Assembly (NCBI GenBank): GCA_964187785.1
Contig: OZ076409.1
Span: 47,060,001-47,124,000, forward strand
Direction of reading: 5' to 3'
DNA length: 64,000 nt
From: Amphiscolops sp. MND2022
Lineage: Eukaryota
Position 1 is the stretch's first letter; each line of letters begins with the position of its first letter. A program made the position numbers and the translations under genes. The notes under the pieces are model-generated. The model made no database searches and was not told where the DNA came from. It saw nothing but the letters and a program-made list of their open reading frames with translations. Below are positions 21,239 to 43,587 of the stretch, one piece after another.

Positions 21239-21568
21239 CTGCATTTGGTCCGATGCACGGAGAATAATACGGAAATGCAATATTTCAAAACGATGAAAAA
21301 AGCATTGCAGAAAACACGGGGGCCGAAATTTGAAAGAAAATTGTTAATTGCTGTCTGTATACAGCTAAAGCTATGCAAATTCTTTTGAAAATTTTTCCTG
21401 TAATTTTCCAAGGCTCTTCCTGCAGAAACCTTTTCTCTCTTATACTTAGCTTGTTACTGTAGATACGCCGTCGCCTCAGCAGCAAATGTACATAAATAAG
21501 CCATTTTCAGCTATTTCATTTGTCTTTTTCCTGTACCTCGAAAAAATGCTAAAATTCTGCAGTATGTT

Positions 21569-23479
21569 TGTGTTGACCGTGATTAGGGAGCAAATCACTT
21601 GGTTCAACTAGTCTATATCTATACTCCGCGTTTTCTGCATCCTCGTCGTCGGGACCACGACGCACGTTGTTAGGCGGTCTTTCTGTCAGCGTATCGATTT
21701 TAGAAGTCAGGTTTTCTATCATCTTCAGAATCTCGCGCTGTCCGACTTCCGCGTCTTTGATTCTTTTACTTACAGATTTTTCTATCTTTTCAGATAATTC
21801 CGTAAAATCCTTATCGGACAAACTAGCAGCGTTTTCAGTTCTCATGCTAGAAGATTCAGGTTCGTCTAAAGAGTTCACAGGGGAATCCCTTCTGGCTTTT
21901 CTTTTGGAGCTACGTTCTGGCATCTTACTTAGGCTTGATAATTCTCGATTTTCTTTTTTAAGGAAATAAGAGCAAGTTCTCAAGTGACAAAGTGTGACGT
22001 TTCAAGATTTTTAATTATCGTTAAACGAAAGATAATTGTTTCGCAAAATAACAAAATTCAACTAAACATGGCTTCTAGCTCGCATTGTATTTATACTTTC
22101 CATCCCGGAAATCGGGGAAAAGACACGAACATACTTCACATTTTGTTCAGTCCGGCGTCCGTCCGAGGCAGGGAAACAGGAAGTTCAGTTCCGCTTTGTC
22201 GAACTCAGGCCTTCAGCTTGTTCATGCTTTCCGAAGAAAGCACGCGCCCACTTCCGGCCTGAGTTGCGACTCCGCTTCCCTTCGCCTCCGATCTCTCGCC
22301 TTTTCAGGACGCCGAACTGAAAAAAATTATCAAGACACGCGCAATGAGTCACTGAACAAGGTTGATTAACTGCACAAATTTGGAAAAAAATGATGACAAC
22401 CAATTTTCCTTTACAAATAATTCTCTAGATTAAATAAATCAGCAACAATTTGGATGAAATTAAACCTGAATCACACATTAAGTTTTAAATGAAAAGGGTA
22501 GAATTGTTTCTACAGTATTTACGGCTCTGATTTTTGGTTAAGATCACGAAGCCTGGCCCCAGGCCATAGTCCGGGACGGACAAATTTGTTCAATGGATAA
22601 AGCAACTATTAATTATAAACAGCATCAGATACATTGTTCAGAAAGGTATTTAATGCAATTAAACGGCAACAGATTCAGGGGACAGGATATAAATGTTATT
22701 AACACTTGGTTTGATATTCAGTACTAAATCTTTGGTCCAGGCTGCGGTTCAGGCCTGTTTATAGATTAATCAAAATTTACATGTAAAAGAACGTTGTATG
22801 TGATATTTTGAATGACGATATAGTTTAAGATCATAAATAATAATCTCTTGATTCATTTCGAGACAAAATTACATGATAGCATCATCATCTTTCACTTTCG
22901 TGATTGATTTATCGTATGTAATTCTCAGGCCGCATCCCAGGACATGGTACGTGATATTCTATTAAGTTAGCACAGAAATCTCAATCGTTGGTATATTTGC
23001 ACTTGTATTGTTAATAAAACACTGCACTAGACATTAGTTCATTTACATGTATTCACTATAACGCGCGCTTGCATATTAGTTCACTGAGTTTATAATTCTC
23101 AGGCTGCCTGCCAGGCCGCCGCTTCAGTGCGAGTATTTGAGGCCGGCTGCCAGGCCTCAGTTCCGCCTTCGATTTCTCAGTTCGTTCACTGAGCGGTGCA
23201 ATTCGATTATTATTATTACATAGTATTGTATTATTATTAACTGCACAAATAGCTCCGTTATTCCGTAAGTACGTATTTATATAAGTGTACATTATTATGA
23301 TAATAATACTAATATGCATATATTTATTAATTTAACTTCAAATTTATATTGTTTAACTCCTTTGTTTCTGATTGTTTGTCCGCTGTCTATTTCCTCTTCT
23401 TTTGTTCTTTTCCCAATTTATTCTTCGAAGAGTGGGTTGTGTTTGTTGCAATACTCGCAGCTCAGGCGGGGCTGTGACA
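21569..23479 (-). repeat. 3' LTR (1911 bp)
   Basis: Direct repeat of 35260-37169; about 28 substitutions and one indel counted by eye (~98.5% identity). Confidence 0.97.
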
Positions 23480-24002
23480 GTCCTCGGCTTCTGTACCCAG
23501 TTCCCTCAGGAAGAAGAAATTGGGAAATCGATCGAATCGGGGTCTCAAATAGCGTTGGGAGATCGTCAGTTAAGGAATTGTAGGATCGCCAAGATGAGTC
23601 TGTCTCCCAATCACTTCCCGAATAGTAGCCTTCTGAGCTACTGTAGAAACTTATCGGGCTATCAACGTTGTAGTCGGGATCATCGTAAATTTCACGGTCG
23701 AATTGCCTGACCGGACTCACAAATGTGTCTTCGGGGATCACTGGGTTGTCTTGCGTGAAACGTCTGATGACTCCCGTCTCGCTTTCTGTGTTCGTAGTAT
23801 CAGCCGGCGCTTCTTCGTGTACTAGGACTACGTGGTAGTCCTGTGTTTTAATGATTTCATAAGTAATGTTAATTTGCCGCGTGGTAATTAGGTTATAATC
23901 TGGTGGCGGTGTACCGGGTCTTTGTTCGGGCTGCTGCTGTTGATCTCGTTCGAGAATGAAGACGTCTTCGTCCATTTTGCTGCTTGAATTTGGATGATTC
24001 AT
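23418..24002 (-). CDS. ORF3, 194-aa acidic protein of unknown function; spans PPT and ends inside 3' LTR
   Basis: Intact ORF with ACAACAATG start context and TATATAA ~125 nt upstream. The last ~20 codons (LSQPRLSCEYCNKH...) lie in the LTR. Confidence 0.7.
   Translation of the reverse strand: MNHPNSSSKMDEDVFILERDQQQQPEQRPGTPPPDYNLITTRQINITYEIIKTQDYHVVLVHEEAPADTTNTESETGVIRRFTQDNPVIPEDTFVSPVRQFDREIYDDPDYNVDSPISFYSSSEGYYSGSDWETDSSWRSYNSLTDDLPTLFETPIRSISQFLLPEGTGYRSRGLSQPRLSCEYCNKHNPLFEE
23480..23507 (-). other. Atypical polypurine tract
   Basis: GAGGGAACTGGGTACAGAAGCCGAGGAC directly abuts the 3' LTR TG; purine-rich but interrupted by pyrimidines. Confidence 0.5.
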
Positions 24003-24125
24003 TGTTGTAGTAAACTAAGCGTCAGTCAATTTTTAGTACAACTGATTTGCTTCGCTTGGAAAATTTGTTCACACGGTTTGTGTCAACTCCATGAATTGTT
24101 CAGCTGGCAGACTGAACAACTCTCC

Positions 24126-24132
24126 TTATATA
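24126..24132 (-). promoter_or_regulatory. Putative TATA box for ORF3 (internal, possibly bidirectional promoter region)
   Basis: TATATAAGG on the minus strand, between the divergent ATGs at 24002 (-) and 24222 (+). Confidence 0.5.
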
Positions 24133-24221
24133 GTAGATAACTTTTGATAGTAGAAATTTCCTTGCTTTACGCCACATCTTCTTTGATTTTATGCTGGTTG
24201 TTATTTTTAGATTGTTTGAAA

Positions 24222-27200
24222 ATGAGTTCAACTGAAGCTGAAAATGTTGTCTTGAGTCAAAGTCGGGCCGTCGGATTGAAGGAGAGCGAGGCCGAGGTCG
24301 AGTCTGTGGTAGAGTCTGTCGTGCAAGGTGAGCGGACAGTGGTTGCTTCTGACGAGGTAGAAAGTGGAGAGGCTGGGGATGCAGCTAATGATGAGCCCGT
24401 GGGTCCTGGATTTGGAGAGAAAGGCAGTTCGAGTGAGGACGGTGAAAGCTGCGCTGAGACGGAATCGTAACATTCAGCAACGAGTGACGGTCGTCATGAT
24501 CTCAACTACCTAGCGGACAAGAAAGGTAAGCTTTCTAGAAATTAAATGGTGGCCAGCCTTTCTAGGGTGTGTTGAACGCGTTCTTTTACTTCTACTTTCA
24601 CAGTGACTGATGATGAGCTTGACGAAGATTATGCCCCCAGTTTGTCTACGAGGTCGCAGAGCAAGAAGAAATCACGGTCCAGTCGGGTGCTTTCAACGAG
24701 TAGTGCAAAGCCTTCTAAGCGTGTGCGTTTGGCTGACGTGATTTCTGGAGCGATTCCCAAGCCTCCTATGATGGGCGACAGTTCTGGGGGAGATTTTGAA
24801 TCCGCGACAATTTCTGCATCCAAAACACTTGAAAGTAGGTAATCTTTCTCTTTCTTGTTTCTATGAAGTTTTCTTTGGGTTTTCATTTGTGGTTGTAGGG
24901 TCTACATTCCACTTCTGTATACTTCATATTCGCTTTTGTTGTAGTTGCCGATCCTTATCCTGGTTTGGGGGATTGCTCCGATCCGGAAAGTGATGTGTTT
25001 GCTGTTGAGGCTACAGTTGGGACGCCGGCCCCAGAAAGTGACGCGATGTCGGTGTTGCCTGAAGGTCTTTCTCGTCAGACACGGACACAGCACAATCGTC
25101 CAGCTGTGGGGCTCGAGCCTTCAGTGGTCCATAATGAGTGGGAGAAAGGTACAGTTTTAAGGTTTCTGTTGTACAGTGTTGCTCATTGTAGTTATGTCGT
25201 AGGTTCGTTGTATTCCGTTATGTAGTGTGTCTTGATTTGGTGAATGGTGTTGTTAACGTGTATTGTGATGTTTTAGTTGGTCTAAAGTCTGTTCCTCCGG
25301 GTTCCCCCATGGTGATGACGGCAGCTCAATGCGTCATTCTTGCACGGAGTGCGGCCCGGGCAGAGCGCCGTGAAACGTTAAAGGAGACCAAAACCTTGGC
25401 GAAGCGTAAGTAGTAGTGTGTCTTGTTGATTGTTTTTCCTGTCATCTGACTTCTATTATTTCTGGCTGTATTTTGTATTGTATTGCTTTGTTTATTACTG
25501 GCCGACTCTGTCTGTATTCTTCTGTTCTGCTTGTATTCTGGTTGTTGTAAAGGTGAGTGATGTTTAGAATTTGAAGAGTTATCACAGTTACTGAAGTCGA
25601 GGGGCATCGATGCAGAGGACCCTGGTCGGGTCATGGATCCATTGGAGGCCAAAAAGGAAAAATTGCTGGCACGAGATGAGGAGCGCGCCAAGAAGCAGTC
25701 CGAGCGACATGTATTGACCAAAGCCATGAGCAATCACCCAATCCCGAAGTTGTTTGTGAGTCGGAGGAGCGACAAAGGGCCGAACGGTTTCAATTGTGCG
25801 ATCTGTCAAAAGGACGTGTCCTTTTTATCACGTGGGCCACGGGGTATCTGGAGACACTTTAAGTGTAAAGGACACTATGCCAAGGATCGCCGTTATCGCT
25901 ACGATCATGAGGAGATGATCTTTACCGAGAAATTTGATGCCATTACCGTTGCCGAATTGACGGTGGAACAGCGTGCTGAAATTGAGCAGACTCCGCCTGT
26001 GGTGTCGGGCAAGATGAACAAGTTTTTGGAGGACGAAGTTGACGCGCTGGTCGGTGTTCCATCCAACGTGCCTCCGACTACCCTTGTAGGCTGCCTGTTC
26101 GAATTGCTGCGGAGTGGTGGGTCACAGGTGTTTCTCGGTCGTCTTTGGAATCAGTTCCGAACGACCCTGCCTGTGGAAAGTCCCTATGCTTCAGTGACCT
26201 GGAGCAAGACAGAAACGTTGGTCGTCCTTGTTCAGACCCTCTATCCTCGGGTGTTACGTCGTGTAAAGTCATGGCACGGGGACGGCCCATTCAGTTTGGC
26301 GTTGCATAGTTATTACTCCGGTGTGAAGTGCATCGTCCGTTGCTGCCCCGGTGACTCTTTGCGTGAAGTGCACCTTGTGGATGAAGATCCGAGGGATGTA
26401 GCTTGTGGGGCGGAGGTACAGTGTCTGGCCCGTGCTCTGTCGCTAGTCTCTACTCGGCGGGGGCCCGCTGCTATTCTGGGTTGCTCTCCTGTGCTTTTTA
26501 ACGCCTATGTGGACTGGTGTCGCTCAGTGGGTCGGCCTTCTCCTATCGTGGCTATTTCGTTTACTGGAGATGTATTTCGTCGACTTGTAGGTGAATCTAG
26601 CTTGGCGTGTGTGGGTGCGGTCGATCCTTTTGCTACTGTAGATTACCTGGCTCACCGTCTCATGAGGATCCGCCATCAGGCGTGGTTGCTGGATCTGCCG
26701 AAACTCCGCATGTGCCTGGAAACTGGAGTCGTGCCCTTCGCTTCATTGTGTGATGTGCTGCAAGAATTGTTGGATCACTGGCCTGATGTGAAGCTCAGTT
26801 TGTCAAATGACGTTTTCATGATAAAGAAGGTTGCGAATGTTGTGGACTTAGATTCCTTGCTTTGTTCTGATCGCTTGGGTCTCCCTCGCTTGTCGCTATT
26901 ACATGTGGTGTTGCTGTGCTTTCGCGCCAACTTCAAGAGGCTCTTTGACTCTGGTGCAAAGGATTATGCCTGTAGGAACTATTCCGACTTTTGCTTCTTC
27001 TATTGGAGCCTTTTAAGTAAGGTCAAGAAGATGAGCCAGTTGCCCTCGATCGACGATTGGTCCAAGTATATGGGTAAACCTTTGAACAGTTGGGCCAACG
27101 TGTCTGTTGGTGAGTGCTTGCAAGGTGAGCCAAGTATTCTAAAGGCATTGCGGGGTTTCGAGGACACTCCCCGGCGGGCCTTCCTTCGCGAACGCCAGAG

Positions 27201-28023
27201 CTATTTGTTGGAATTGTTGAAGCATTTGGGGTCTTCTGCCTATGCCAGTTCTCGGGTCGCTCGTTCCCTTAGTTGTCTCAGCGTGGACATGCTCTTGGGT
27301 GGCGATGCTGATTATGTAGTGGAATTATTTCAAGAACTGGTTACATGTCTTCAAGAAGCTGGTTACCTTGATAATGTGGATCGCGAGTCGTCAATGAATG
27401 AGTTTAAGTCACTAGTAGTGGATCTTTGTCAGTTATCAGCAGATTCTTCGCAGATTTTTGATGTGTTTGAGTATTTGGAGTCTGTGCGTAGCTACCAGTG
27501 TCGGATACATGTGAAAGAAGTCGTTCGTTTGGTTCGTGTTGTTGTGTGTCCTGCTCTTGAGCCCATGCCTCCGGTCGATATTTCAATCAGTGGGACTCAA
27601 TTGCCTCCTTCTGTTATCCGTTCCGGTCTGTATGCAGTTCAGTCATTCGTGGTTCATCCGAAGTTTATGTCGAACGATTTGTTGACTGTGGAGTGTCTCG
27701 CTGAATTGAAAACTAACTTGCCCGTTGGACATCAATTTTTAGTGCGCAGTTCATTTGATCCTTGGGCTGGGGTCAGTCGCCATTCCAGTGAGGAGATTTT
27801 TGCAAGCCTTTTTGGCTGTTATACTGCATATTATAATGGACAAGTTGAGGAGTGGAGGATACGGACGTCAGGTCAGTCGTCTCGTCGAGGATGTTCTGGT
27901 TCCATTGTTGCTGATGGCGCCTCGTCCGCTGCTGTTGTTGAGAGAGGATCCGATGTTCCTGGGACGTCTTCTCAAAGTCAGAAAGGGAGTAAGAACAGTC
28001 AGAAGCAAGGGAAATCTTGCTGA
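24222..28023 (+). CDS. Spliced antisense gene, exons 24222-24525, 24604-24834, 24945-25148, 25277-25405, 25568-28023 (~1107 aa); BED-like zinc finger, probably hAT-transposase-derived; one premature TAA at 24468
   Basis: Four GT-AG introns (GTAAGC..CACAG, GTAGGT..TGTAG, GTACAG..TTTAG, GTAAGT..TTTAG), all phase 1, join the short ORFs 24144, 24603, 24965 and 25225 to the 796-aa ORF in one frame. Confidence 0.82.
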
Positions 28024-28356
28024 ACTTTTGATGCTGATTGATTTGTTGATGAACTTTTGATTGTATTTATATTGTATTTACTATTTTGTTGAACCCATTA
28101 TTGTTCTCTTGTTATTCCTGGGGTTCCGCATGTCGGTTCCTTTCAATCATCAAAAGAATTGAAGAATAATGCTCCTGTTGTAGGGGGTAAGATAGAAAAG
28201 CTCAGTTGAGTATAGGGCTTGTCAATTTAGCATTTAGCCTCTGAATTGTTTTCATCCAAGTCGTAGAGTACAGTAGAGTGAGTGAGAGCCATAGTAATTT
28301 GAAGAGATTTGAAGTCAGGTCATAGGATTGTGGTCCAGGCCAGTGCCTGGGCCTGA

Positions 28357-31300
28357 TTAATTTTCTGATCTCGGACTGCCGTCTGGGCCGAGGTCCGCTA
28401 AAACCTGTAATTCTGGGCCGTTGTCCAGTCCGTCGGAAGAATGTGCCAAATTTGTTGAATTGGCTGTTAGGGCATTGTAATAGGCATATTCTGGTTTCCA
28501 ATTTGACGTCGGGTTTTTTCGAAGGTTGTAATGGGATTTCCGGGGGGATTGAGGTGCGGGTGTATTATTTTCGGGTTCATCATCGATATCAATTGGTGGG
28601 TCCTGTGTCTGGTCACTTGGGTGGTTAGGAATGATTTCGGGGTCGTATACTAGGTTAGGACTTGGGGGGCCGGGGTGGGTGGGGTCATTGATTGTTTCTG
28701 GGGTTGGTTGGATCACTTCGGGTTCGGGTAATTGTTTGTTTTCGGGTTGGTTAGGGCATTCTTTGTACAGTTCTTCCCACGCCATTGCGAAGAGGTCGTC
28801 GTGCTGTATGGTTACTTCTGTATCCTGCTGGAAGTCCTTGGGTGGGACTGTAATGTCAGGCAGCTTGTGGCTGCTTGCGAAGGGGCGTAGCCTGATTCTA
28901 TGCAAGATCTGTGTGAAATTGGTCTGGAGTTTACGTATAAGATAGTTGTTGTTGGGTAGGGTTTTGACCACGATATATGGTCCCGTCCAAAGGTATTCCC
29001 GAAACGGCAATTTCGTCGCTTGGCTATGCGCCTTTGGATGCAAAGCATAGCAGTAGTCGTTTACTACCAAGGGGTGTGCTGATGCTTTCCGGTCATAATA
29101 ACGCTTATGTCGGACGTAGGCTTGCATCAGGGCTTGTTGGCTCTGGTTGAGGATTTCTTGTGTTTGTTGTAACACTCTCTCAGCTATTTCGTGGTTGGTT
29201 GGGGCAGTGGCCTGGGGTTTAAGGCCGTACTTTAGGTCGAGTACGTTGTATGGCACTCTTCCATGGAAAACTCGGCTGGGTTCGCAGCCTAATGATGTGT
29301 GGTAGGAAGTGTTGTAATTTAATACTGCCATTGGTAAGACTTGGTGCCACATCGTTCGCCTCTCTCCCGTCATGATTTTTAGGCTTGCTTTGAGCGAGAC
29401 GTGGGTCCTTTCTAGGATGCCTATCGTCTGTGCATGTTTGGTGGTGGCATGTTTCAGTTGGATTCCGAGAATGGCTGTTGTTTGTTGCATTGCCTCCGAT
29501 ATGAACATGGATCCTTTGTCCGTGATTATCGTTGTGGGGGAATAGCAGTGTCTTGTGATGATATCTGTAAGGACCCGTGTGACAGTCTTGGTGTCGATTC
29601 TGGCGACGCTATACGCAAATAGATAACGGGAGAATACATCCATCGCTGTGCTGACTGCAGTGTATCCTCCTGAAGGGTCGTCGAAAGGGACGATGTCCAT
29701 TTGTAGTGCGTCTTCTGGGCCCATCGCTATTTTGGACATGTCGATGAGCGGGGGTGTAATGTTGGCATTTGGTATCCTTTTCGTCTGAGCGCATTCTGGG
29801 CATTGTGCAATATGGGTGGCTATTCGGGCGGCTAGCCCCGGGAAGTAGTACTTTTCGCGGCATTGCTGGATGGTTTTAGCTATACCTGGGTGTTTCCCGA
29901 ATTTGCCATGGTGGTGTTGTATGAATTCGTCAACTAGTTGCTGGGGGAGTAGTACTTGCAAGTACTTGACTTTCCCTGTATCGCCAAAATATTGTCGATA
30001 CAGGAGTCCATCTTTTATGATGATGCGGTCATCTTGTGTGAGGTATTTGGCCGCTCTGGGATCGTCGTTCAGAAGTTGGGTGTCGTACGGTTCTTTTAGG
30101 ATTTTCAGTTTGAGGTTTCTGAGGACGGGGTCCTGGTCTTGGTACGGTCTCAGACTGCGCGGGAAGATTGTGTCACTGTGGATTTGGCGCCGCTGTTCTT
30201 GCTCTGGGTCTTGGATGTTGTTGCAGACCAAGGGTAGGTTCTCGGGTTGGGAGATGGTTTGGGCGGTTTCACTCTTGGGGTCGGAGTTCTGTTCATGGGG
30301 TGTGTAGATCTGTTTCCTGGCTTGTTGTTTACGCTCCCAAATGTCTTCTTCGGTCTCAGTGTCGTCCTCTGGTAAAAAATAGAATTGATCTTCTTCATGG
30401 ATGTCGGAGGATTGTATGTTTACCTGGATCGGTGTCGTTTGAATGTCTTCTCTGATTTGGAGAAGGACTTTTTCTTTGGGGCTAATGTCTAATCGGGAGA
30501 GGAAATCGGCTGCTGTATTCATCCTTCCCGGCACATGGGCGATTTTAAAGTGAAATTGCAGTACAAAATCGCAGGCATTCCAGAGGGAGGGTGGTATCAT
30601 CTTGGTTTGGAAAAACCTGGTGACTGATTTATTGTCGGTTAAGACAATAGTCGGTTTGGATGAACCCCACAAGATGTGACTATATTCCATAAAAGCGAAA
30701 TAGATGGCTAAGAATTCTTTGGCATAGATTGACATCTTCAACTGGGATGGTGAAAAAGTTTTAGAGCCAAATGCCACTGGAGCGTAAGTCTTCCTGGTGG
30801 AGGTGATCTTTTGCTCCGGGTCTTCTTCCGTCATCAAGGCATATCCGGCATTCCTGAAGCTTGCGTCTGTCATTAGTACGTACTGCCGGTTTGGCAGTGG
30901 CTGTTTGAGCCAAAGGCCGCATGCGTTGTCTAACGATTTGTTGATAGCTTCGAAATTGGATATGAGTTCCTGATCTATCTTGACTGGCATGTCTGATTTG
31001 ATGAGTTCATGAAATGGGGCAATCTTCTCTGATAATCGGGGAATGTAGTTTCTGTAGTAATTTACGAAGCTGATGTATCTTTGAAGTCCCTTCTTCGTCC
31101 GGGGGAATTTGATGGTCTGAAGGTGTTTCTGGATCTTGTGGCTTTGGGGTGCCACCCCTGCTGGGGAAATTGTTCGCCCAAGGAATTCGACTTCCTTGGC
31201 GCCGAACTGACATTTGGCCATGGAGAGCCGGAGTCCTGCTGCGCGGATGCAGTGGAAAACTTCTCTCAAGTTGTTCTTTAACTTCTCGGGAGTGTTGGTG

Positions 31301-33453
31301 GCGATTCCAATGTCATCCACGTACTGAGCGCATTTGTCCGCCTTTATGGCCTTGTCGAGGTATTCCCTCATGAAACTTGAAAAGGACGACAATGAGCGGC
31401 TCACGCTATGGGCTAGCCTGAGGTACGCGAATGTCCTGCTGGCGAAGTTGAATGCTAGAAGTTGAACGGACTTTTGGTCTGCCATTTGCAGCACGTGGTA
31501 GGCTTGTGAACAATCAAGCTTGCAAAACAACTTCTTGCCGGCGAGGTGTTGCGCCGCGTCTGTCAGTGTGCTCACTGGATGATTGTTGTTAATGTAATCA
31601 TCAGATATCAGATTGTTGATTTTTCGGAGGTCGACTAGTAGGCGCAGGCGGCCGTTTGGCTTCCGTTGGGCGAAAATGGGGCTGGCATACTTGCTGAACG
31701 GGAGCGTGGTTATAATCCCGAAGTAATGCATTAGGCCCAATTCGACCGTCAGATCTTCTTTCAGGTTAATGGGGCAGGGCAAACTCTGTGAGTAGACGGG
31801 GTCGTCTGTTTTCGGTGTGAGTTTGATTTTGAAATCATGGTTGATTCCAATGTCTAGTCGGTGTCTTGCAAAGATATCGTTGAACTCTATGAGTATTTCT
31901 TCGATGTCTTTCTTGTCATCTTCTGAGAGTTGTGAATCGTCCCATTTGAAGCTTTGGAGGAATGTTTTTAGTTCCTCTTCGCTGTTGTTTGGGTCGAGTT
32001 TCTGGATTTCTTCCAGTTCTTTGATTTCTCGGAGAATTCGGTTCTGAATCGGGGTGTGTGTAGCGGGGTCTCCGGGGTGGTCTGGTGTGGGAAACCAAAA
32101 GTTTTGATTGTGAGATGGTTTTTCTGAGGTTTTCAGGAGCTCGTTGATGTACACCATCGCTTCTTCGGAGTCGTCTTCGGCGAGCACTTTGAGTGCTGCT
32201 GTGTTGAGTGGTTTGAGTTCTTTTGCCTCTTCAGGGGACAGGATTTTGAATTCTGCTATTGTTGTGTTTCGTTTGATGGTATAGGGTGTAGGGGTGGTAT
32301 TTGTTACTCTGATGTCAATTTTTCGGTTTGAGGCTGTTGAGATTGAACTGGCTACCACGAGGGGGTCGCCACTGCAGTGGTTGGTGGCTGGGTTGATGAC
32401 ACCGGTTGTGTCGACGTTGGATGGGATATCTGTGGAGCCTGTTATTGTTTGTGTCGTTTCAGGGGGAATAGTGAGTGGATTCTTTATTTGTACTTTGTAC
32501 AGTTTCCTGTTACGGGTATATTCGTCGGTTTCGATTGAATATGTGAGGTGGGGGAAGTGTAGCAGGCCCTGGCTCACGTCCAGGATGGCGCTGTTATTTT
32601 TAAGGAACGTGAGGCCAAGTATTGGGCCTGTCAGTCGTTTGGCCACGATAAATGTTTCCTTAAAATTCCAGTCTCCGATTTCGAATTGGAGGTTGATTGT
32701 TTTGGTGGGTGTTTCAATGTCGTTATTTGCGACTTGGAGTTTGAACGGAGGCGGTTCCAACTCTTTAACTATGTCTTTGGGGGACATTTGGAGGATTTTA
32801 TTGTAATCGGTTTCGGAGATGCAGTTTACAAGGGCGCCAGAGTCAATAAGGGCGTCCAGGGTCAAGTCCTGGAAGTCCATGGGGGCGAAGAGCATTTTCT
32901 TCTTCTTTTTGAGGGATACTGCTGAAAAGATTGGTATGCACTCTTCTTTTGTTATGGGGTCTCTCGTGAGGTATTCCGCAATCTGGGCCAGGGGGTAGGA
33001 CTGGGGTTCGTCCTGGGATGGTGTGTCATTTGCAACACCGGTGGGGGATCCAGATTGTGTATTAGTTGTGGCAGGGTTGAGGGGTCGAGGGTCCTCGACT
33101 TCGTTTCCGGTCTGCCTACTGGAGAGAGAGGTGTGAACGTTGATTTCTCTGACTGGACTTTTGTTGTTCCTCTGATATTCTGCAGTCTGCTCAGGGAGGT
33201 AGGACTTGGGAACGTCCTGTTGCGGTGTGCCGTTTGCAGCACCTGATGGGAATTCAGACTGCATGTTGGTTGCGTCAGCTATGATGTGTCGATCGGTGTC
33301 GATTTCATCTTCTAGCTGACTATTGAGGATAGTGGGTGAGAGCTGTGTCTCGTATTGAACGGAGGGTTCTAGGAGAAGAGATCTCTTTATTCGTTTGGTT
33401 TTTGGTTTGGAGAAGTTTGTCTCCGAATTGGGTGTAGGTGAGGTCAGGTCCAC
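28357..33453 (-). CDS. pol: Gypsy Pol: aspartic protease, dUTPase-like remnant, RT, RNase H, integrase
   Basis: ALIDSGA; LRLLVDLR; KLDCSQAY; YVDD; LMTDAS...KEFLAI...TDNK...ADFLSR; H-H..CPEC; D(QMDI)-D(ITDKG)-E(ILER); GPY module. Confidence 0.97.
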   Translation of the reverse strand: MDLTSPTPNSETNFSKPKTKRIKRSLLLEPSVQYETQLSPTILNSQLEDEIDTDRHIIADATNMQSEFPSGAANGTPQQDVPKSYLPEQTAEYQRNNKSPVREINVHTSLSSRQTGNEVEDPRPLNPATTNTQSGSPTGVANDTPSQDEPQSYPLAQIAEYLTRDPITKEECIPIFSAVSLKKKKKMLFAPMDFQDLTLDALIDSGALVNCISETDYNKILQMSPKDIVKELEPPPFKLQVANNDIETPTKTINLQFEIGDWNFKETFIVAKRLTGPILGLTFLKNNSAILDVSQGLLHFPHLTYSIETDEYTRNRKLYKVQIKNPLTIPPETTQTITGSTDIPSNVDTTGVINPATNHCSGDPLVVASSISTASNRKIDIRVTNTTPTPYTIKRNTTIAEFKILSPEEAKELKPLNTAALKVLAEDDSEEAMVYINELLKTSEKPSHNQNFWFPTPDHPGDPATHTPIQNRILREIKELEEIQKLDPNNSEEELKTFLQSFKWDDSQLSEDDKKDIEEILIEFNDIFARHRLDIGINHDFKIKLTPKTDDPVYSQSLPCPINLKEDLTVELGLMHYFGIITTLPFSKYASPIFAQRKPNGRLRLLVDLRKINNLISDDYINNNHPVSTLTDAAQHLAGKKLFCKLDCSQAYHVLQMADQKSVQLLAFNFASRTFAYLRLAHSVSRSLSSFSSFMREYLDKAIKADKCAQYVDDIGIATNTPEKLKNNLREVFHCIRAAGLRLSMAKCQFGAKEVEFLGRTISPAGVAPQSHKIQKHLQTIKFPRTKKGLQRYISFVNYYRNYIPRLSEKIAPFHELIKSDMPVKIDQELISNFEAINKSLDNACGLWLKQPLPNRQYVLMTDASFRNAGYALMTEEDPEQKITSTRKTYAPVAFGSKTFSPSQLKMSIYAKEFLAIYFAFMEYSHILWGSSKPTIVLTDNKSVTRFFQTKMIPPSLWNACDFVLQFHFKIAHVPGRMNTAADFLSRLDISPKEKVLLQIREDIQTTPIQVNIQSSDIHEEDQFYFLPEDDTETEEDIWERKQQARKQIYTPHEQNSDPKSETAQTISQPENLPLVCNNIQDPEQEQRRQIHSDTIFPRSLRPYQDQDPVLRNLKLKILKEPYDTQLLNDDPRAAKYLTQDDRIIIKDGLLYRQYFGDTGKVKYLQVLLPQQLVDEFIQHHHGKFGKHPGIAKTIQQCREKYYFPGLAARIATHIAQCPECAQTKRIPNANITPPLIDMSKIAMGPEDALQMDIVPFDDPSGGYTAVSTAMDVFSRYLFAYSVARIDTKTVTRVLTDIITRHCYSPTTIITDKGSMFISEAMQQTTAILGIQLKHATTKHAQTIGILERTHVSLKASLKIMTGERRTMWHQVLPMAVLNYNTSYHTSLGCEPSRVFHGRVPYNVLDLKYGLKPQATAPTNHEIAERVLQQTQEILNQSQQALMQAYVRHKRYYDRKASAHPLVVNDYCYALHPKAHSQATKLPFREYLWTGPYIVVKTLPNNNYLIRKLQTNFTQILHRIRLRPFASSHKLPDITVPPKDFQQDTEVTIQHDDLFAMAWEELYKECPNQPENKQLPEPEVIQPTPETINDPTHPGPPSPNLVYDPEIIPNHPSDQTQDPPIDIDDEPENNTPAPQSPRKSHYNLRKNPTSNWKPEYAYYNALTANSTNLAHSSDGLDNGPELQVLADLGPDGSPRSEN

Positions 33454-34124
33454 GGCTTCGATCGTGGTCCTATCGGTGAGGTTTCAAGTTGGTGGCTGTC
33501 TGGTGCCACGTCCGTTGTTGGGGATCGTATGATACCGGCTCTGATAGGGTTTCTTGGCTGATCTTTTGGTGGAGAATGGGGAGCCGTGGTATAGGATCCT
33601 TGGTTCTTGAGTATAGATTTGACGTTGTTCTGTGAGATATCAACTAGGATTTCTGTCACGTGTTCGGCATCCTGGTTGTAGTCTGGGATAGGTTGGACGG
33701 TTTTGGACCTGTGACGTGGTTCGGTGGAAATATTCATCCCTGTTTTTCTGATGTACTCTTCAAATGGCGTGCATTCCTGCTGTTTGAACGTTAGGGTTGT
33801 CTTGTCATACAGTTGAGGGTTGTAGTATGGGTCGCAGTTGAAGTCAGAGTCGTGGAAGTAGGTTTCAGGTGAAGTGCTTTCTGGTAGGGGTCGTTTAGGA
33901 GTATTGTAAGCAGTCGGGTTGTCAAGATACCACTGAGGATAGTCTTTCTTTGCAGTGTTTTGGCGATTATATTTATTGAGCTTGTGAATCTGCCATCTTC
34001 GCTGCCAGTCGAGAGATGGTTCTTCATGTCGCTCGGTGTTCCTTTCGTGGTCATAGGAATTTGGGGGTTCAGATGTTGTGTACTGTCGGGTTTCGACGGT
34101 GTCCCCAAATCGAAGATGTGGCAT
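33444..34124 (-). CDS. Pol N-terminal extension (in the -1 frame of gag; separated from the rest of pol by a probable 1-nt deletion)
   Basis: Directly follows the slippery site; its frame overlaps the pol frame at ~33444-33485. Confidence 0.7.
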   Translation of the reverse strand: MPHLRFGDTVETRQYTTSEPPNSYDHERNTERHEEPSLDWQRRWQIHKLNKYNRQNTAKKDYPQWYLDNPTAYNTPKRPLPESTSPETYFHDSDFNCDPYYNPQLYDKTTLTFKQQECTPFEEYIRKTGMNISTEPRHRSKTVQPIPDYNQDAEHVTEILVDISQNNVKSILKNQGSYTTAPHSPPKDQPRNPIRAGIIRSPTTDVAPDSHQLETSPIGPRSKPWT

Positions 34125-34136
34125 ATTTAGTTTTTT
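34085..34136 (-). other. Putative -1 programmed ribosomal frameshift signal
   Basis: TCA AAA AAC TAA gives the heptamer A-AAA-AAC just before the gag stop; downstream TTCGA...TCGAA stem with a GGGG loop and nearby CCC. Confidence 0.75.
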
Positions 34137-35614
34137 GATTGGCTGAGCTCCTGGGTTTGGTTTTGAGGTTGAGTGTTCTGCGGGAGCATGGGTTGGTAGC
34201 CCGTTTGGCTATTTGTTTGGTTGTTAAATGGGTGTTGATGTACTGGTGTGTTGTCTGGGGGGTACTGACCTTGTGTATTCTGTGGCAACGGGATGTTATT
34301 CGGTGAAGTTGCTTTAGGGGTCTTCCACCATTGGGGTCTGTTTGCCCAGTTGGCGCCAGAATAACAATCCTGTGTCGTTTGGCTCTTTTTGCCGCAGGTT
34401 TCACATGGGTTTGTTATTTTAGTCGGTGCCCTATTGCCTCGGTTGCGGGCTTCCCGAGCAGTTTTCCGGCAGTTCTTTATTACATGTCCTGGGTTGCCAC
34501 ATCCGAAACACGGGCCCGCTGGTTTGGGTGGATTGGCGGTTTGTTGTGGGGCGTCTTGTACATCGATTTGGTGTACTCCTGTTATGTTTGTTTCGCTTGG
34601 GGCCAGGAGTCCGTTTAACTCCATCTCGCGTTCTAGGTGTTGGACCATCAGGTCGTATGACTCTGTCTCGAGTCTTGCCTGGTTAAGGACTCGTTTTAAG
34701 TGCGCTGGCATTTTTGCATAGAATGAGGTTTCTATGAACTTTGGGGCGTCGTCGCCATATGCCTCCTGTGCCAATTTCTGGTATTGCTCCAAGAAGTCTT
34801 GGAAGGTTTGGCGAGTCGGGTCGAATTAAAGTTGTTCCCACTTACATCTTGCGGTGGCTATGGATTGTGGGCGAACGTATCGTCTTCGGAATGTGGTAAT
34901 GATGTCGTCTAAACTGGCGCGGTTTGCGTCTGTCATATTGCGATACGTCTGTAGGGCATCGCCTCTCAGGAGGGAGTGGAAGTAGTGAATTTGCTCTTCC
35001 TCTGAGATATTTGGATATACTTTGAGGCTTGTCATAAACAGGTCCTCGAAGTGTTCGAATTTGTCGTTGCGGCCATCAAATGTGGGCATGGTTGTTGAGA
35101 GTGCCTTCGGGAGTCTGGGCAGTCCCGCGCTCTGTTGTGTGGCATTCTTCAGGGATTCGAGCAATTTGTCCACGATATCGTCTGGATATCTCATGTTGGG
35201 CGGGGGTAGACTTGATGATCGGGTGGGTATGTCCTGGGTTGTGGTAACTCCTGTCACCATGTGTTGACCGTGATTAGGGAGCAAATCACTTGGTTCAACT
35301 AGTCTATATCTATACTCCTCGTTTTCTGCATCCTCGTCGTTGGGACCACGACGCACGTTGTTAGGCGGTCTTTCTGTCAGCGTATCGATTTTAGAAGTCA
35401 GGTTTTCTATTATCTTCAGAATCTCGCGCTGTCCGACTTCCGCGTCTTTGATTCTTTTACTTACAGATTTTTCTATCTTTTCAGATAATTCCGTAAAATC
35501 CTTATCGGACAAACTAGCAGCGTTTTCAGTTCTCATGCTAGAAGATTCAGGTTCGTCTAAAGAGTTCACAGGGGAATCCCTTCTGGCTTTTCTTTTGGAG
35601 CTACGTTCTGGCAT
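34127..35614 (-). CDS. gag: Gag (starts within LTR; in-frame stop at 34826-34828)
   Basis: PTFDG..FEDLF..LLRGDAL capsid-like region; zinc knuckles CFGCGNPGHVIKNC and CETCGKKS(Q)TTQDC. ORFs 34826-35674 and 34127-34792 are in the same frame. Confidence 0.92.
35242..35259 (-). other. Primer-binding site
   Basis: TGGTGACAGGAGTTACCA immediately follows the 5' LTR ...CAACACA. Confidence 0.8.
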
Positions 35615-37169
35615 CTTACTTAGGCTTGATAATTCTCGATTTTCTTTTTTAAGGAAATTAGAGCAAGTTCTCAAGTGACAAAGTGTGACGTTTCAAGATT
35701 TTTAATTATCGTTAAACGAAAGATAATTGTTTCGCAAAATAACAAAATTCAACTAAACATGGCTTCTAGCTCGCATTGTATTTATACTTTCCATTCCGGA
35801 AATCGGGGAAAAGACACGAACATACTTCATATTTTGTTCAGTCCGGCGTCCGTCCGAGGCAGGGAAACAGGAAGTTCAGTTCTGCTTTGTCGAACTCAGG
35901 CCTTCAGCTTGTTCATGCTTTCCGAAGAAAGCACGCGCCCACTTCCGGCCTGAGTTGCGACTCCGCTTCCCTTCGCCTCTGATCTTCCGCCTTTTCAGGA
36001 CGCCGAACTGAAAAAAATTATCAAGACACGCGCAATGAGTCACTGAACAAGGTTGATTAACTGCACAAATTTGGAAAAAATGATGACAACCAATTTTCCT
36101 TTACAAATAATTCTCTAGATTAAATAAATCAGCAACAATTTGGATGAAATTAAACCTGAATCACACATTAAGTTTTAAATGAAAAGGGTAGAATTGCTTC
36201 TACAGTATTTACGGCTCTGATTTTTGGTCAAGATCACGAAGCCTGGCCCCAGGCCATAGTCCGGGACGGACAAATTTGTTCAATGGATAAAGCAACTATT
36301 AATTATAAACAGCATCAGATACATTGTTCAGAAAGGTATTTAATGTAATTAAACGGCAACAGATTCAGGGGACAGGACATACATGTTATTAACACTTGGT
36401 TTGATATTCAGTACTAAATCTTTGGTCCAGGCTGCGGTTCAGGCCTGTTTATAGATTAATCAAAATTTACATGCAAAAGAACGTTGTATGTGATATTTTA
36501 AACGACGATATAGTTTAAGATCATAAATAATATTCTCTAGATTCATTTCGAGACAAAGTTACATGATAGCATCATCATCTTTCACTTTCGTGATTGATTT
36601 ATCGTATGTAATTCTCAGGCCGCATCCCAGGCCACGGTACGTGATACTCTATTAAGTTAGCACAGAAATCTCAATCGTTGGTATATTTGCACTTGTATTG
36701 TTAATAAAACACTGCACTAGACATTAGTTCATTTACATGTATTCACTATAACGCGCGCTTGCATATTAGTTCACTGAGTTTATAATTCTCAGGCTGCCTG
36801 CCAGGCCGCCGCTTCAGTGCGAGTATTTGAGGCCGGCTGCCAGGCCTCAGTTCCGCCTTCGATTTCTCAGTTCGTTCACTGAGCGGTGCAATTCGATTAT
36901 TATTATTACATAGTTTTGTAATATTATTAACTGCACAAATAGCTCCGTTATTCCGTAAGTACGTGTTTATATAAGTGTACATTATTATGATAATAATACT
37001 AATATGCATATATTTATTAATTTAACTTCAAATTTATATTGTTTAACTCCTTTGTTTCTGATTGTTTGTCCGCTGTCTATTTCCTCTTCTTTTGTTCTTT
37101 TCCCAATTTATTCTTCGAAGACTGGGTTGTGTTTGTTGCAATACTCGCAGCTCAGGCGGGGCTGTGACA
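35260..37169 (-). repeat. 5' LTR (1910 bp)
   Basis: TGTCACAGCC...CAACACA; direct repeat of 21569-23479. Confidence 0.97.
35779..35786 (-). promoter_or_regulatory. LTR TATA box
   Basis: TATAAATA ~165 nt upstream of the gag ATG. Equivalent boxes at 22088, 8807, 11809, 37893 and 48028 in related LTRs. Confidence 0.6.
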
Positions 37170-37230
37170 ATGTTCACTCTCACTTCATGCCGGGAATGCA
37201 ACGTAGTTTCTTCACACTGAGTTACGTTTG

Positions 37231-42095: not shown

Positions 42096-43587
42096 GAAAG
42101 GAACGCCTTAAGAGTTTCTGCAAAGAAACATTTTAAACTCCACTAAAACTCATTAGGATGATATTTCTTTTGACTTGTCATGTAAATTGTATGTTTGTAT
42201 TGAAGTTCCTTTTATATTGTTTTCCTAGGTTCTCTTAAAGCTGCTTGACTCATCTAGATTTCATTCATAAACGTAACATATGCAGAAAGACTTCATAGGT
42301 ATGATCAATCTGAGATTTTTTGATTTCTCGTTATTCGTAATCATGCTACAATTAGGACAACGAATAAGCGTCAATGAGCGTTTTCAAATACCAAAAAAAC
42401 GTCATTATACACAAAATGGCCTTGCGAGTATACGCCATTATACGTAAAACAGTTTCCGAGCATGCGTCATTATACGTTTTTTGAATATGCAGTAATATAC
42501 GTTTTGAAATGATCAGAATATACGGCAACATACCTTTTGTCATTTTTAATATACGCTGCCATGCATTTCTTGCAGTAACGAATATGAGTCAACATACGCT
42601 TTGCGAGATAAAGCCACAAGCTACTATACGGATTGAATCATGATGTATATACATTACGATTCTTGTGTGTAACGGCTGCTTGCCCTTATCCTGCGCTGAG
42701 GCTTGACAAGCTTTACGCCGCCCTGATCCGTTGCTTAGTACTGTGGACCGTTACTAAACAAATCCTGGTTTTCTTGTTTTAAAGGACTGTATCTTTTGGC
42801 TGGCGGGTCCGATGTGACCCGTGGAATCTCCTGCGATTCCTCTTTGCACTGATTTGGATCCGATGTGATCCTGCACACACACACTTCCCTCACTGTATCT
42901 TCACGCGCTCCGGCTCTCCAACTATGAGAGTAGCTACTTAGTCGCTCTGACTCTAGCGAAAAGTTGTGAAGATTGAGAAGTTGATTTATTAGTCTCGCGG
43001 TCCTGAGACCCAACTTGACTATAGCTATACAGTGGAGAAAATCTCTATCTAATAATGGTATACATATGGTTTACAATTCTACAGTAAATACAGAGCAAAT
43101 ATAAGTTGAAATATGTTGTATAAATAAATGACATTTAAGTGAATTATTAAAGTTATTAGCTATGTAAACAAACCATAGTGTGGGTATAGCATGTTGGTTA
43201 GGTGGGCTCTAAAGCATGTTTACACAATGTAAATATCAATCATTGCAACAGAGTTACATTCTAATGTGGTCGTAAGGATAAATAGCAATGTTTACATTTT
43301 TGTCTCAATGACCTTGAGTACTACACATGTGAGGGGTAAAGGGGGTTATAATGGGTGGATGACCTTGAAACTTGGCCGGTGTGTTTGTGTTAGGTACTTG
43401 CGTATGTGTGCCAAGTTTCATGGCTCTATGATTAATAGTCTTGGAGAAAACACATTTGGGGGGGGGGTTTAAAGATTTGTGATGATTGGATTTTCTTCAA
43501 ATTTTCATCTAAGTTTTTAAGAGTTTAAGTCTTGTTTCTCAACCAGCATGTTCCAAATCGACTTTCTCTGCTTTCTGATGACTGGCG

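Follow-up and report, generated by a model that had tools for sequence, protein, structure and literature searches.

Organization of the retrotransposon

The stretch analysed here, called the window below, comprises 64,000 nt of the genome of Amphiscolops sp. MND2022 (contig OZ076409.1, positions 47,060,001-47,124,000), and all coordinates are those of the window. We found that positions 21569-37169 are occupied by a complete LTR retrotransposon that is Ty3/Gypsy in type, 15.6 kb long and lying on the minus strand, and that the region between its pol gene and its 3' LTR forms an accessory cassette of 4.9 kb, in which, as originally predicted, an intron-containing gene is encoded on the opposite strand (Table 1). 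The class of the element is indicated by its LTR structure and by the order of the pol domains, protease - RT - RNase H - integrase. Along the pol product, P0001, Pfam matches were to an aspartyl protease (residues 204-296), RVT_1 (607-772), RT_RNaseH (864-974), Integrase_H2C2 (1180-1235) and rve (1256-1348), with no chromodomain found by Pfam at the C-terminus of the integrase. Both LTRs are in direct orientation and share 98.5% identity across 1911 bp in a self-BLAST, and the 5-bp target duplication at the ends of the element indicates integration by the integrase. The stretch preceding the 3' LTR is partly purine-rich and resembles a polypurine tract. The gag gene starts within the LTR, as it does in two other copies (L047 and L048), and carries a single in-frame stop at 34826-34828, in agreement with the original prediction; in addition to the capsid-like and CCHC matches, it matches DUF1759 (E 4e-7, Pfam), a domain frequent in the gag proteins of BEL/Pao elements. 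No tRNA genes were found in the 64-kb window, and Rfam gave no match within the element. An ORF of 829 aa at 43801-46290 was considered as a possible relative of the antisense protein, but was rejected as unrelated.

Table 1. Features of the retrotransposon and its antisense gene (window coordinates)
Feature	Position	Strand	Evidence or remark
Target-site duplication ATGTT, 5 bp, left copy	21564..21568		read from sequence
3' LTR, 1911 bp	21569..23479	-	self-BLAST, 98.5% identity to 35260-37169; termini read, TGT..ACA ends
ORFx, sense strand, about 194 aa	23418..24002	-	ORF list; start head-to-head with antisense gene
Promoter-like region	24125..24180	+	between two divergent ORFs; TATA-like element and conserved 12-mer
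Exon 1, 304 nt	24222..24525	+	ATG at 24222; private in-frame TAA at 24468-24470
Intron 1, 78 nt	24526..24603	+	GT..AG; unusually conserved
Exon 2, 231 nt	24604..24834	+	gene model; found in other loci
Intron 2, 110 nt	24835..24944	+	GT..AG
Exon 3, 204 nt	24945..25148	+	gene model; found in other loci
Intron 3, 128 nt	25149..25276	+	GT..AG
Exon 4, 129 nt	25277..25405	+	gene model; at least 150 genomic matches
Intron 4, 162 nt	25406..25567	+	GT..AG; acceptor at homologous place in 15/16 of the about 48% loci
Exon 5, 817 codons and TGA	25568..28023	+	gene model, ORF; encodes protein P0002
BED-like CCHH zinc finger	25795..25875	+	C-x2-C-x16-H-x5-H; C76, C79, H96 and H102 of P0002
hAT-transposase-like core (predicted), residues 204-700	26179..27669	+	RNase H-like sheet and large helical insertion (predicted)
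Recombination breakpoint, cassette/pol (approximate)	28200..28270		identity shift against L017/L022
pol ORF, PR-RT-RH-INT	28357..33483	-	Pfam RVT_1, RT_RNaseH, rve, Integrase_H2C2
gag	34127..35614	-	ORF list, Pfam; ATG at 35614 within 5' LTR; capsid-like and CCHC matches
Primer-binding-site-like 18-mer starting TGG	35242..35259	-	directly after 5' LTR, inside gag frame
5' LTR	35260..37169	-	self-BLAST; termini read, TGT..ACA ends
Target-site duplication ATGTT, 5 bp, right copy	37170..37174		read from sequence

Structure of the antisense gene

The structure first proposed for the antisense gene, namely five exons separated by four T-rich GT-AG introns, was reproduced from the sequence, and the joined exons give 3324 nt, that is, 1107 codons followed by TGA. 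The T content of the four introns is 37-51%, and the lengths of the first four exons place all of the introns in phase 1. The sole interruption of the frame is the TAA in exon 1, which had been noted before and is indeed present, but is private to the window copy, its position being a sense codon in 11/11 other copies of the same family. The gene is convergent with pol, the two stops being separated by 333 nt, and neither AATAAA nor ATTAAA was found in the 1.2 kb downstream of the antisense stop in the window copy. A structure of this kind is far beyond chance, and the comparative evidence described below leads us to predict that the gene is transcribed from its own start and spliced at the four junctions. 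For annotation, this means that gene finders will label such loci as host genes, while ORF-based callers will detect exon 5 alone.

The predicted protein begins with a third, encoded by exons 1-4, that is acidic and Ser-rich and has patches of basic residues; a BED-like CCHH finger and a body of predicted hAT fold follow towards the C-terminus. The acidic N-terminus and the finger spacing were both part of the original prediction. We found all four finger residues to be invariant in 18/18 aligned proteins, although the Pfam zf-BED family did not match the finger in P0002 or in its 18 relatives, and the model confidence at the finger is 57-83. An N-terminal BED-type CCHH finger is common, but not universal, in hAT transposases.

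Predicted fold of the antisense protein

The body, previously described only as large and helical, could be refined to a predicted hAT-transposase fold. In comparisons of an AlphaFold2 model of the protein (pLDDT 77.7, pTM 0.68) with known structures, Foldseek ranks 1 to 10 were all Hermes, with a probability of 1.00, the following rows being at 0.21 or below, and VIA-align aligned 380-417 residues with Hermes at a Z of 12.7-13.6 and an rmsd of 4.8-5.2 A (model residues 174-701 against Hermes 115-609), the next match having a Z of 5.7. Without Foldseek, a search of 48,161 solved chains gave Hermes as the only chain with Z >= 8, followed by the DDE transposases ISCth4 (6.2), RAG1 (5.7), Tn5 (5.4) and P element (4.8). 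Independently, a search with a protein language model led to hAT-derived families.

The homology to hAT rests on the predicted structure because a link at the sequence level is absent. P0002 matched no Pfam family at E <= 0.1, its 18 relatives gave only scattered weak matches at E <= 10, each in no more than two members, and 12 relatives, including distant ones, matched no Pfam family. Specifically, PF05699, the C-terminal hAT dimerisation domain, was absent from P0002 (E <= 0.1) and from the 18 relatives (E <= 10), and the same profile had at least 150 matches elsewhere in this genome, which therefore contains many hAT elements. A profile search of PDB sequences returned two rows, neither of them significant (E 0.22 and 3.8), and an hhalign comparison with a complete hAT transposase from this genome had a probability of 0.26%.

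In hAT enzymes, two aspartates are located on strand 1 and directly after strand 4, and the one hAT enzyme compared, the genome's own, reads ..LDCWT.. and ..VTDNATN.. at these positions. Among 18 sequences of the antisense protein, neither strand 1 (residues 241-248) nor the segment following strand 4 (about 301-306) contained an invariant acidic residue. One glutamate, E611, varied hardly at all, the most distant rows included. The DDE catalytic residues have thus apparently been lost, as judged from the order of the motifs and the missing invariant acidic residues rather than from a residue-level superposition.

Conservation and selection among copies

The gene was found opposite pol in every lineage examined in the genome, with protein identities from about 96% down to 26-38%, and in all 56 further loci of four divergence tiers (11 + 18 + 16 + 3, with 8 splice-site sequences among them). 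Because of this constant position it is a dedicated part of the element, as had been proposed, and not a passenger. The splice sites, whose conservation was a main point of the original prediction, were canonical at 87/88 dinucleotides in the same-family copies (n = 11 others) and at 54/56 in seven sequences of the subfamilies with about 73% identity, and the last acceptor AG was present in 15/16 loci of the lineages with about 48% identity. In the about 73% subfamilies, all five exon pieces were detected in 17/18 loci, and the C-terminus of pol lay opposite and downstream over at least 309 aligned residues in 16/18, being truncated in the remaining two; exons 1-4, when joined, were free of stops in 8/9 sequences and had a length leaving phase 1 in 9/9. 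At about 48% identity, pol was opposite and downstream in 16/16 loci. In the lineage with 26-38% identity, pol (44-52% identical) had the same placement in 3/3 loci, the finger spacing was kept, and at least three further GT-AG introns were present.

A slower divergence of the exons, as expected from the original prediction, was borne out for introns 2-4. Between subfamilies, these introns showed 42-55% mismatch with many gaps and could not be aligned, whereas the exons showed 23-42% mismatch and zero frame-breaking gaps. For exon 5, pN was 0.16-0.17 and pS, which is saturated, was 0.76-0.80 between subfamilies, and the three pairs with measurable dS gave omega values of 0.13, 0.056 and 0.062; for exons 1-4, omega was 0.11-0.21, so that dN/dS over the exons of the gene ranges from 0.06 to 0.21. 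These comparisons show the antisense gene to be an old constituent of a retrotransposon clade, maintained by selection and accompanying pol in each lineage examined.

In this genome the family is young and numerous, with at least 150 matches to exon 4 alone and with many copies that are 96-100% identical. Among the best 150 of 310 exon-4 candidates, no processed, intron-less copy with a frame of about 1100 aa was found, and the frames of 918-933 aa seen there fit read-through of intron 4 only. Protein searches returned only ENA-derived proteins without a name, namely 37, 372 representatives and, with a profile, 198, and a named protein was present in 0/10 of the clusters looked up. A relative in at least one other assembly shares only 47-53% identity with the best of the matches scored for this genome.

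Intron 1, promoter-like region and exchange of the cassette

Intron 1 departs from the other introns, its mismatch between subfamilies being 8-23% compared with 29-42% in the exons. It contains two palindromes, TTTCTAGAAA at 24532-24541 and GAACGCGTTC at 24574-24583, each occurring once in the 64-kb window (expected 0.20 and 0.05, respectively) and neither recurring in the LTRs. The conserved motifs of the cassette likewise did not recur in the LTRs, and no tandem repeats were found. Upstream of the gene, a near-palindromic TATA-like element at 24127-24133 was conserved in the alignment of the about 73% subfamilies, as was the 12-mer ACGCCACATCTT (24169-24180), which has one change in the about 48% lineages. 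The region containing both, which lies inside the element about 650-690 bp from the 3' LTR, may serve as a promoter. ORFx lies on its other side; it overlaps the stretch resembling a polypurine tract, and its end is about 60 nt inside the 3' LTR. Its amino acid identity is 62% and 43% in two other lineages; it has no Pfam match, and its predicted structure showed no confident fold (pLDDT 43).

Identity to the copies L017 and L022 was 51-76% over the cassette, but from about 28270 onward it rose to 92-98% for L017 and 96-98% for L022, in which a partial last bin gave 70%. This shift shows that recombination has exchanged the cassette between lineages.

Possible function of the antisense protein

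Introns antisense to the genomic RNA of a retroelement survive reverse transcription, whereas introns on the sense strand are lost. The four introns described here are opposed to the genomic RNA of the element and hence cannot be spliced from it, so that they are copied via reverse transcription and a host-like exon-intron structure is kept in each round of retrotransposition. We propose, with a probability of roughly 0.55, that the gene product derives from a transposase, is not catalytic and regulates the copies of its family in trans by binding DNA. A hAT transposase gene would have been acquired by an ancestor of the retrotransposon; its protein would then have lost the DDE catalytic residues and would now be a sequence-specific DNA-binding factor, made from its own spliced mRNA, much like the hAT/BED proteins domesticated by hosts. 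Domesticated hAT/BED proteins act as DNA-binding regulators, and by analogy the most likely role would be that of a transcriptional regulator of the element, in which the acidic N-terminus may be the effector part and the finger and core the DNA-binding part. Among its targets might be the LTR, the promoter-like region inside the element or the palindromes conserved in intron 1.

Other roles were weighed against this one. The protein might be a targeting or tethering factor, binding DNA at chosen genomic or chromatin sites and recruiting the integrase complex there. Such a role, which in other Gypsy and Ty elements is played by chromodomains or by contacts between the integrase and host factors, would fit the predicted DNA-binding architecture of finger and hAT-like fold, the strong purifying selection, the co-inheritance of the gene with the integrase in all lineages and the lack of a chromodomain at the integrase C-terminus; however, the free recombination of the cassette away from pol speaks against its being closely co-adapted to a single integrase, and we regard this role as unlikely. 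A counter-silencing function, in which the protein, or the convergent spliced transcription itself, would shield the element from silencing by small RNAs or chromatin, possibly with splicing marking the locus or the mRNA as gene-like, appears quite unlikely to us: although introns have persisted, and some have even been added, from lineage to lineage, intron 1 is conserved above the level of the exons and the architecture itself entails convergence with pol, the strong selection on amino acids over 1100 codons implies that the protein matters and not the transcript alone.

Greater doubt attaches to a still-active nuclease or transposase that would cut or join DNA and give the element an additional function at the DNA level, for example in excision, in the processing of ends or in break-induced copying. 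Over about 500 residues the catalytic architecture of hAT is predicted to be retained as a whole, and E611 is nearly invariant, but strand 1 and the position after strand 4 carry no invariant acidic residue, unlike the genome's own hAT enzyme, which has aspartates there, and the element is flanked by a duplication of 5 bp, compared with the 8 bp usual for hAT. Moreover, the only inverted repeat bracketing the gene, 24141/28141 (16 nt, 81%), is at chance level, since 13 pairs of this kind occur, and other subfamilies do not conserve it. That a hAT transposon or host gene simply landed in one copy and has been carried without function is extremely improbable, even though the predicted fold is that of a DNA transposase and the genome is rich in hAT elements, since the gene lies opposite pol in all further loci of the four divergence tiers, has an omega of 0.06-0.21 and is without conserved terminal inverted repeats. 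As a recent event this passenger reading is refuted, and it survives only as an account of the origin of the gene.

A broader picture, which we offer tentatively and consider possible rather than probable, is as follows: an animal Gypsy clade would have permanently recruited a DNA-transposase gene and kept it as a host-like, spliced antisense gene with its own promoter, functional introns and the form of an exchangeable cassette. If this is true, antisense orientation would be what enables a retroelement to possess a gene with introns, intron 1 would be a conserved control element, and splicing would give the mRNA gene-like export or an escape from surveillance of intronless retroelement RNA. 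The antisense gene and ORFx would together make up an "accessory cassette" swapped by lineages through recombination.

Comparison with known systems

The closest parallel in gene order is offered by plant elements of the Tat/Retand lineage (Retand, Grande and RIRE2), in which, according to the accessible text of two papers, a region of 2.9-6.6 kb between pol and the 3' LTR carries a conserved antisense ORF, mostly with a TRP28 (PF04195) domain, that is predicted to bind DNA and has been proposed to regulate transposition (PMC11963269, PMC7264820). The present clade is similar in that an ORF antisense to gag-pol follows pol, ahead of the 3' LTR, throughout the lineage, in a region of comparable extent. 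It differs in its host, which is an animal, as originally predicted (Wnt genes are present and WRKY gave no match), and not a flowering plant; in its protein, which has neither TRP28 nor any other Pfam match but a predicted hAT-like fold; and in its four introns, the word "intron" being absent from the accessible text of PMC11963269 and PMC7264820.

Among complex retroviruses, the antisense genes of HTLV-1, HTLV-2 and HIV-1 are short and transcribed from the 3' LTR, and HBZ is spliced. HBZ of HTLV-1, APH-2 of HTLV-2 and ASP of HIV-1 are encoded opposite gag-pol-env and are, in the part of the source available, described as nuclear and virus-regulatory (PMC11963269). They share with the present protein its encoding on the strand opposite gag-pol; in contrast, the gene described here has a promoter-like region well inward of the 3' LTR, five exons and 1107 codons, and its predicted fold is unrelated to theirs.

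With Hermes and other hAT transposases, the antisense protein has in common the predicted order of a BED-like CCHH finger on the N-terminal side and an RNase H-like core into which a large helical domain is inserted, Hermes being the best structural match over about 400 residues. However, the identity is about 10%, it matches neither PF05699 nor any other Pfam family, its acidic triad is apparently not conserved, and it has an additional 300 residues at the N-terminus and 120 at the C-terminus. The ZBED/DREF-type BED-finger factors are hAT derivatives domesticated by hosts. In the present case the carrier is a retrotransposon, unlike the TIR transposon of hAT or the host locus of its domesticated derivatives.

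Captured ORFs are also known from LTR retrotransposons of bdelloid rotifers, including env, DEDDy, GDSL and others (PMC5408684, accessible text), and the present element resembles these in being an animal LTR retrotransposon that has acquired and kept additional ORFs. In the accessible text of the same paper, "antisense" occurs once, for small RNAs, "intron" and "opposite" are absent, and no ORF of transposase fold was seen (PMC5408684). Within the full-text literature covered, we found no animal LTR retrotransposon with an antisense gene that bears introns or has a transposase fold, and among retrotransposons antisense accessory genes as such were found described only for plant elements. Three features of the present case were likewise not found in published work: an arrangement of several exons that outlasts reverse transcription and has intron positions changing between lineages; a DNA-transposase-derived protein serving a retrotransposon, in which one mobile class would have domesticated the enzyme of another; and a modular exchange of cassettes between lineages. 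If the broader picture given above holds, the genome organization represented here would be at a level that complex retroviruses are known to have and animal retrotransposons are not known to have. Antisense accessory ORFs, documented for plants, are extended by the present case to an animal, and the abundance of the young family makes the role of retrotransposon accessory genes testable in one organism.

The carrier retrotransposon

A self-comparison of the window yielded a single pair of direct repeats, 1911 bp in length and 98.5% identical, both copies of which start with TGT and end with ACA; the pentamer ATGTT on either flank is a 5-bp target duplication, typical of that left at insertion by an integrase. 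Between these LTRs (Table) lie a gag region, containing the stop that had been noted for this copy, and a pol frame with domains in the order aspartyl protease, RVT_1, RT_RNaseH, Integrase_H2C2 and rve. We therefore read the 15,601-bp unit, from its sequence, as a complete Ty3/Gypsy-type LTR retrotransposon. The host is an animal, since the assembly contains five matches to the Wnt family (best E 3e-45) and none to WRKY.

The gag start codon is situated about 350 nt inside the LTR (35260-35614, minus strand), and a primer-binding-site-like 18-mer (35242-35259) falls within the gag reading frame; two other lineages likewise have an open LTR-borne gag start in their 3' LTRs (loci L047:201-596 and L048:309-698). 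From gag to pol (33444-34208, minus strand) there are two frame changes, with ORF overlaps at 34127-34208 and 33444-33483, which may reflect programmed frameshifting or decay of this copy. Just upstream of the insertion is a reverse-transcriptase fragment of another retroelement (18855-19697, plus strand; RVT_1, E 5.5e-29). Elsewhere in the window, direct repeats of about 930 bp, 98.5% identical, surround an 829-codon minus-strand ORF (43801-46290), whose product, P0189, matches no Pfam family and is not similar to the antisense protein; this region (42668-47847) may be another LTR-bounded element with a gene of no recognised family. An inverted pair of 300-bp repeats (11057-11360 and 48476-48777), 74% identical and 37 kb apart, probably represents copies of a dispersed repeat.

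Features of the retrotransposon and of the cassette between pol and the 3' LTR
Feature	Window position	Strand	Remarks
LTRs	21569-23479; 35260-37169
gag region	between LTRs	-	capsid-like match DUF1759 (E 4e-7); weak Retrotrans_gag and zf-CCHC
gag in-frame stop	34826-34828	-	one, within gag
pol frame	33483->28357	-	1708 codons
Recombination junction (approximate)	~28200-28270		identity step vs L017 and L022
Antisense gene, exons 1-5	24222-24525, 24604-24834, 24945-25148, 25277-25405, 25568-28023	+
In-frame TAA	24468-24470	+	single
Intron 1	24526-24603	+
12-mer ACGCCACATCTT	24169-24180		inter-ORF region; conserved in ~73% subfamilies
TATA-like element, near-palindromic	24127-24133		inter-ORF region; conserved in ~73% subfamilies
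ORFx	23418-24002 (24002->23418)	- (gag-pol strand)	194 codons

Structure and conservation of the antisense gene

The five exons and four introns of the original prediction were reproduced exactly in the sequence. The joined exons comprise 3324 nt, or 1107 codons followed by TGA, interrupted as predicted by one TAA; the introns (78, 110, 128 and 162 nt) all begin with GT and end with AG, are rich in pyrimidines towards the 3' end and contain 37-51% T, and every one is in phase 1 because the first four exons measure 304, 231, 204 and 129 nt. Exon 5 by itself is an 817-codon open frame, encoding protein P0002, in which the expected C-x2-C-x16-H-x5-H finger occupies residues 76-102. No AATAAA or ATTAAA was present within 1.2 kb after the stop in this copy.

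When P0002 was searched against the window's own assembly (1.07 Gb), each of the 56 scored matches was strong, 43 lacked an internal stop, and they formed two identity tiers, 86-100% and 71-74%. Protein databases added a tier at ~48% and another at 23-31%, the latter matching the C-terminal half only, and both also have many near-identical copies in this genome. One database relative, P0026, shares no more than 47-53% identity with its best matches scored here, indicating that the gene family is also present in at least one other assembly.

All four introns were found in 11 further copies of the same family, with canonical dinucleotides at 87/88 splice sites (the exception being an intron-3 donor) and a sense codon at the position of the window's TAA in every copy. 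These copies differ by 0-6% in exons, introns and the pol end alike, and near-identical pairs gave omega values of 0.2-1.3 from very few changes, both as expected from decay after insertion. Of the 310 exon-4 candidates, 150 were scored, and none of these was a fully processed copy. In the subfamilies ~73% identical to the window's antisense protein, the five exon pieces retain their order at 17 of 18 loci, the other adjoining a tandem partial duplication, and the pol C-terminus lies just downstream on the opposite strand, with at least 309 aligned residues at 16 loci and truncated to 59 and 18 residues at the remaining two. At one place in the assembly (L015/L016, 3.2 kb apart), such a tandem partial duplication of the cassette has a 59-residue pol remnant between the gene copies.

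Comparison of these subfamilies bore out the predicted splice sites, with canonical dinucleotides at 54/56 sites in seven aligned sequences. Introns 2-4 are effectively unalignable (42-55% mismatch, up to 65 gap columns), whereas the exons have 23-42% mismatch and no gaps that break the frame. Exons 1-4, when joined, are stop-free in eight of nine sequences, the window's copy being the exception, and leave phase 1 every time, even though their total length ranges between 868 and 919 nt. In exon 5, pS was saturated (0.76-0.80) and pN was 0.16-0.17; omega was 0.13, 0.056 and 0.062 for the three pairs with estimable dS; exons 1-4 gave 0.11-0.21.

Similar linkage was observed in more distant lineages. 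Specifically, pol was opposite and downstream at 16/16 loci of the ~48% lineages (52-58% identical), with a pyrimidine tract and AG at the homologous last-exon start at 15/16, and at three loci of the 26-38% lineage (44-52% identical), in which the finger spacing is kept. In this last lineage (L057:1-2830, also L058 and L059), the stretch corresponding to the window's single exon contains three or more additional GT-AG introns. Introns have thus been gained or lost inside a retrotransposon-borne gene, whose intron complement changed during the radiation of the clade.

The linkage to pol in each lineage and the low omega between subfamilies show that the gene accompanied pol while the clade radiated deeply, and that it was under purifying selection, as predicted for a dedicated accessory gene. 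A chance ORF or a passenger is excluded by this conservation, by the selection and by the protein findings below. We thus consider its identity as an integral, selected, intron-bearing gene of the element to be secure on comparative grounds; its transcription, start site, poly(A) site and splice junctions are predicted by the same comparisons.

The cassette around the gene

ORFx, a second conserved accessory ORF, diverges from the antisense gene, with 220 bp between the two starts, and its last ~60 nt lie within the 3' LTR. Pfam yielded no match for it, and structure prediction gave no confident fold; identity to its counterparts in the two other lineages compared is 62% and 43%. A polypurine-like tract and the LTR terminus encode the conserved SRGLSQP at its C-terminus, so that part of the conservation may be at the DNA level. 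ORFx could be expressed from a divergent promoter or, alternatively, from a spliced subgenomic RNA. In the ~48% lineages, the 12-mer of the inter-ORF region is retained apart from a single change, and this region is reasonably regarded as a putative bidirectional promoter. In addition, intron 1 is more conserved between subfamilies than any exon (8-23% mismatch) and contains two perfect palindromes, TTTCTAGAAA and GAACGCGTTC, each occurring once in the window; the intron may act as a control element or be bound by a protein.

Compared with the L017/L022 subfamily, the window shares 51-76% identity over the whole cassette and 92-98% from ~28270 on (the end of pol), save for one partial last bin at 70%. 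This step shows that recombination joined a near-identical pol to a cassette with saturated synonymous sites, and that the cassette is exchangeable between lineages.

The antisense protein

The database relatives of the protein are all unnamed. Pfam contained no family for it at E <= 0.1, 18 relatives gave only scattered weak matches at E <= 10 (each in at most two members), and a PDB sequence search returned two rows, neither significant. An AlphaFold2 model from a 26-row alignment (mean pLDDT 77.7, pTM 0.68) has three strands (241-272), then helices alternating with short strands, then a long helical region. In a Foldseek search of PDB, ranks 1-10 were chains of the Hermes hAT transposase (E 7.6e-4 to 8e-3, probability 1.00), with probabilities of at most 0.21 thereafter. 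VIA-align superposed residues 174-701 of the model on Hermes 115-609 (Z 12.7-13.6, rmsd 4.8-5.2 A, 380-417 residues aligned), the runner-up being the RAG1 core (Z 5.7). A Foldseek-independent scan of 48,161 representative chains gave Z >= 8 for Hermes alone, with weak rows for other DDE transposases (ISCth4 6.2, RAG1 5.7, Tn5 5.4, P element 4.8). The three structure searches thus concur on Hermes; a protein-language-model search gave hAT-derived families at 0.88-0.91, which is a lead only by the tool's own calibration. The protein thus combines the zinc finger seen in its sequence with, on the predicted model, a hAT-type fold, and the large helical body originally predicted stands, sharpened to a hAT-transposase fold.

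Other findings speak against membership of the hAT superfamily. The hAT dimerisation profile had no match in P0002 (E <= 0.1) or the 18 relatives (E <= 10), although it has at least 150 matches elsewhere in the genome. An hhalign comparison with one of the genome's own full-length hAT transposases gave a probability of 0.26%. Two aspartates of that enzyme lie in ..LDCWT.. on strand 1 and ..VTDNATN.. after strand 4; by the order of elements, the antisense protein has ..FSLALHSY.. and ..ILGCSPVLFN.. at these places, with no invariant acidic residue there across 18 sequences. On this motif order, as distinct from a residue-level superposition, we take the protein to be transposase-derived and probably non-catalytic.

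Possible function and relation to known systems

Introns opposed to the genomic RNA are not removable from it, and antisense introns therefore persist through reverse transcription. A spliced mRNA of the gene itself would give rise to the protein, which has basic patches in its exon 2 part and near its C-terminus and would move into the nucleus. There it would contact DNA through its finger and its transposase-derived core, acting in trans on members of the family. Host-domesticated hAT/BED factors offer an analogy, on which a transcriptional regulator of the element is the most likely role; an integration-targeting tether ranks next, followed by counter-silencing and lastly by residual nuclease activity.

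The original observation is thus confirmed, and its interpretation is supported and sharpened by the comparative evidence and the hAT-type fold. Searches of the openly available full-text literature gave no LTR retrotransposon of an animal whose antisense gene contains introns or encodes a transposase fold. In the portions available, papers on annelid LTR retrotransposons (PMC8220671, PMC8556966), env-carrying metazoan elements (PMC13524379) and extra ORFs of bdelloid elements (PMC5408684) treat antisense ORFs as plant background or leave them unmentioned. Among described systems, the Retand/Tat elements of plants come closest; the available text of PMC11963269 and PMC7264820 draws a functional analogy with retroviral antisense genes and does not contain the word 'intron'. 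Antisense accessory genes are a known kind in LTR retrotransposons, and the present one is set apart by its animal host, its multi-exonic structure and its apparent DNA-transposase ancestry.
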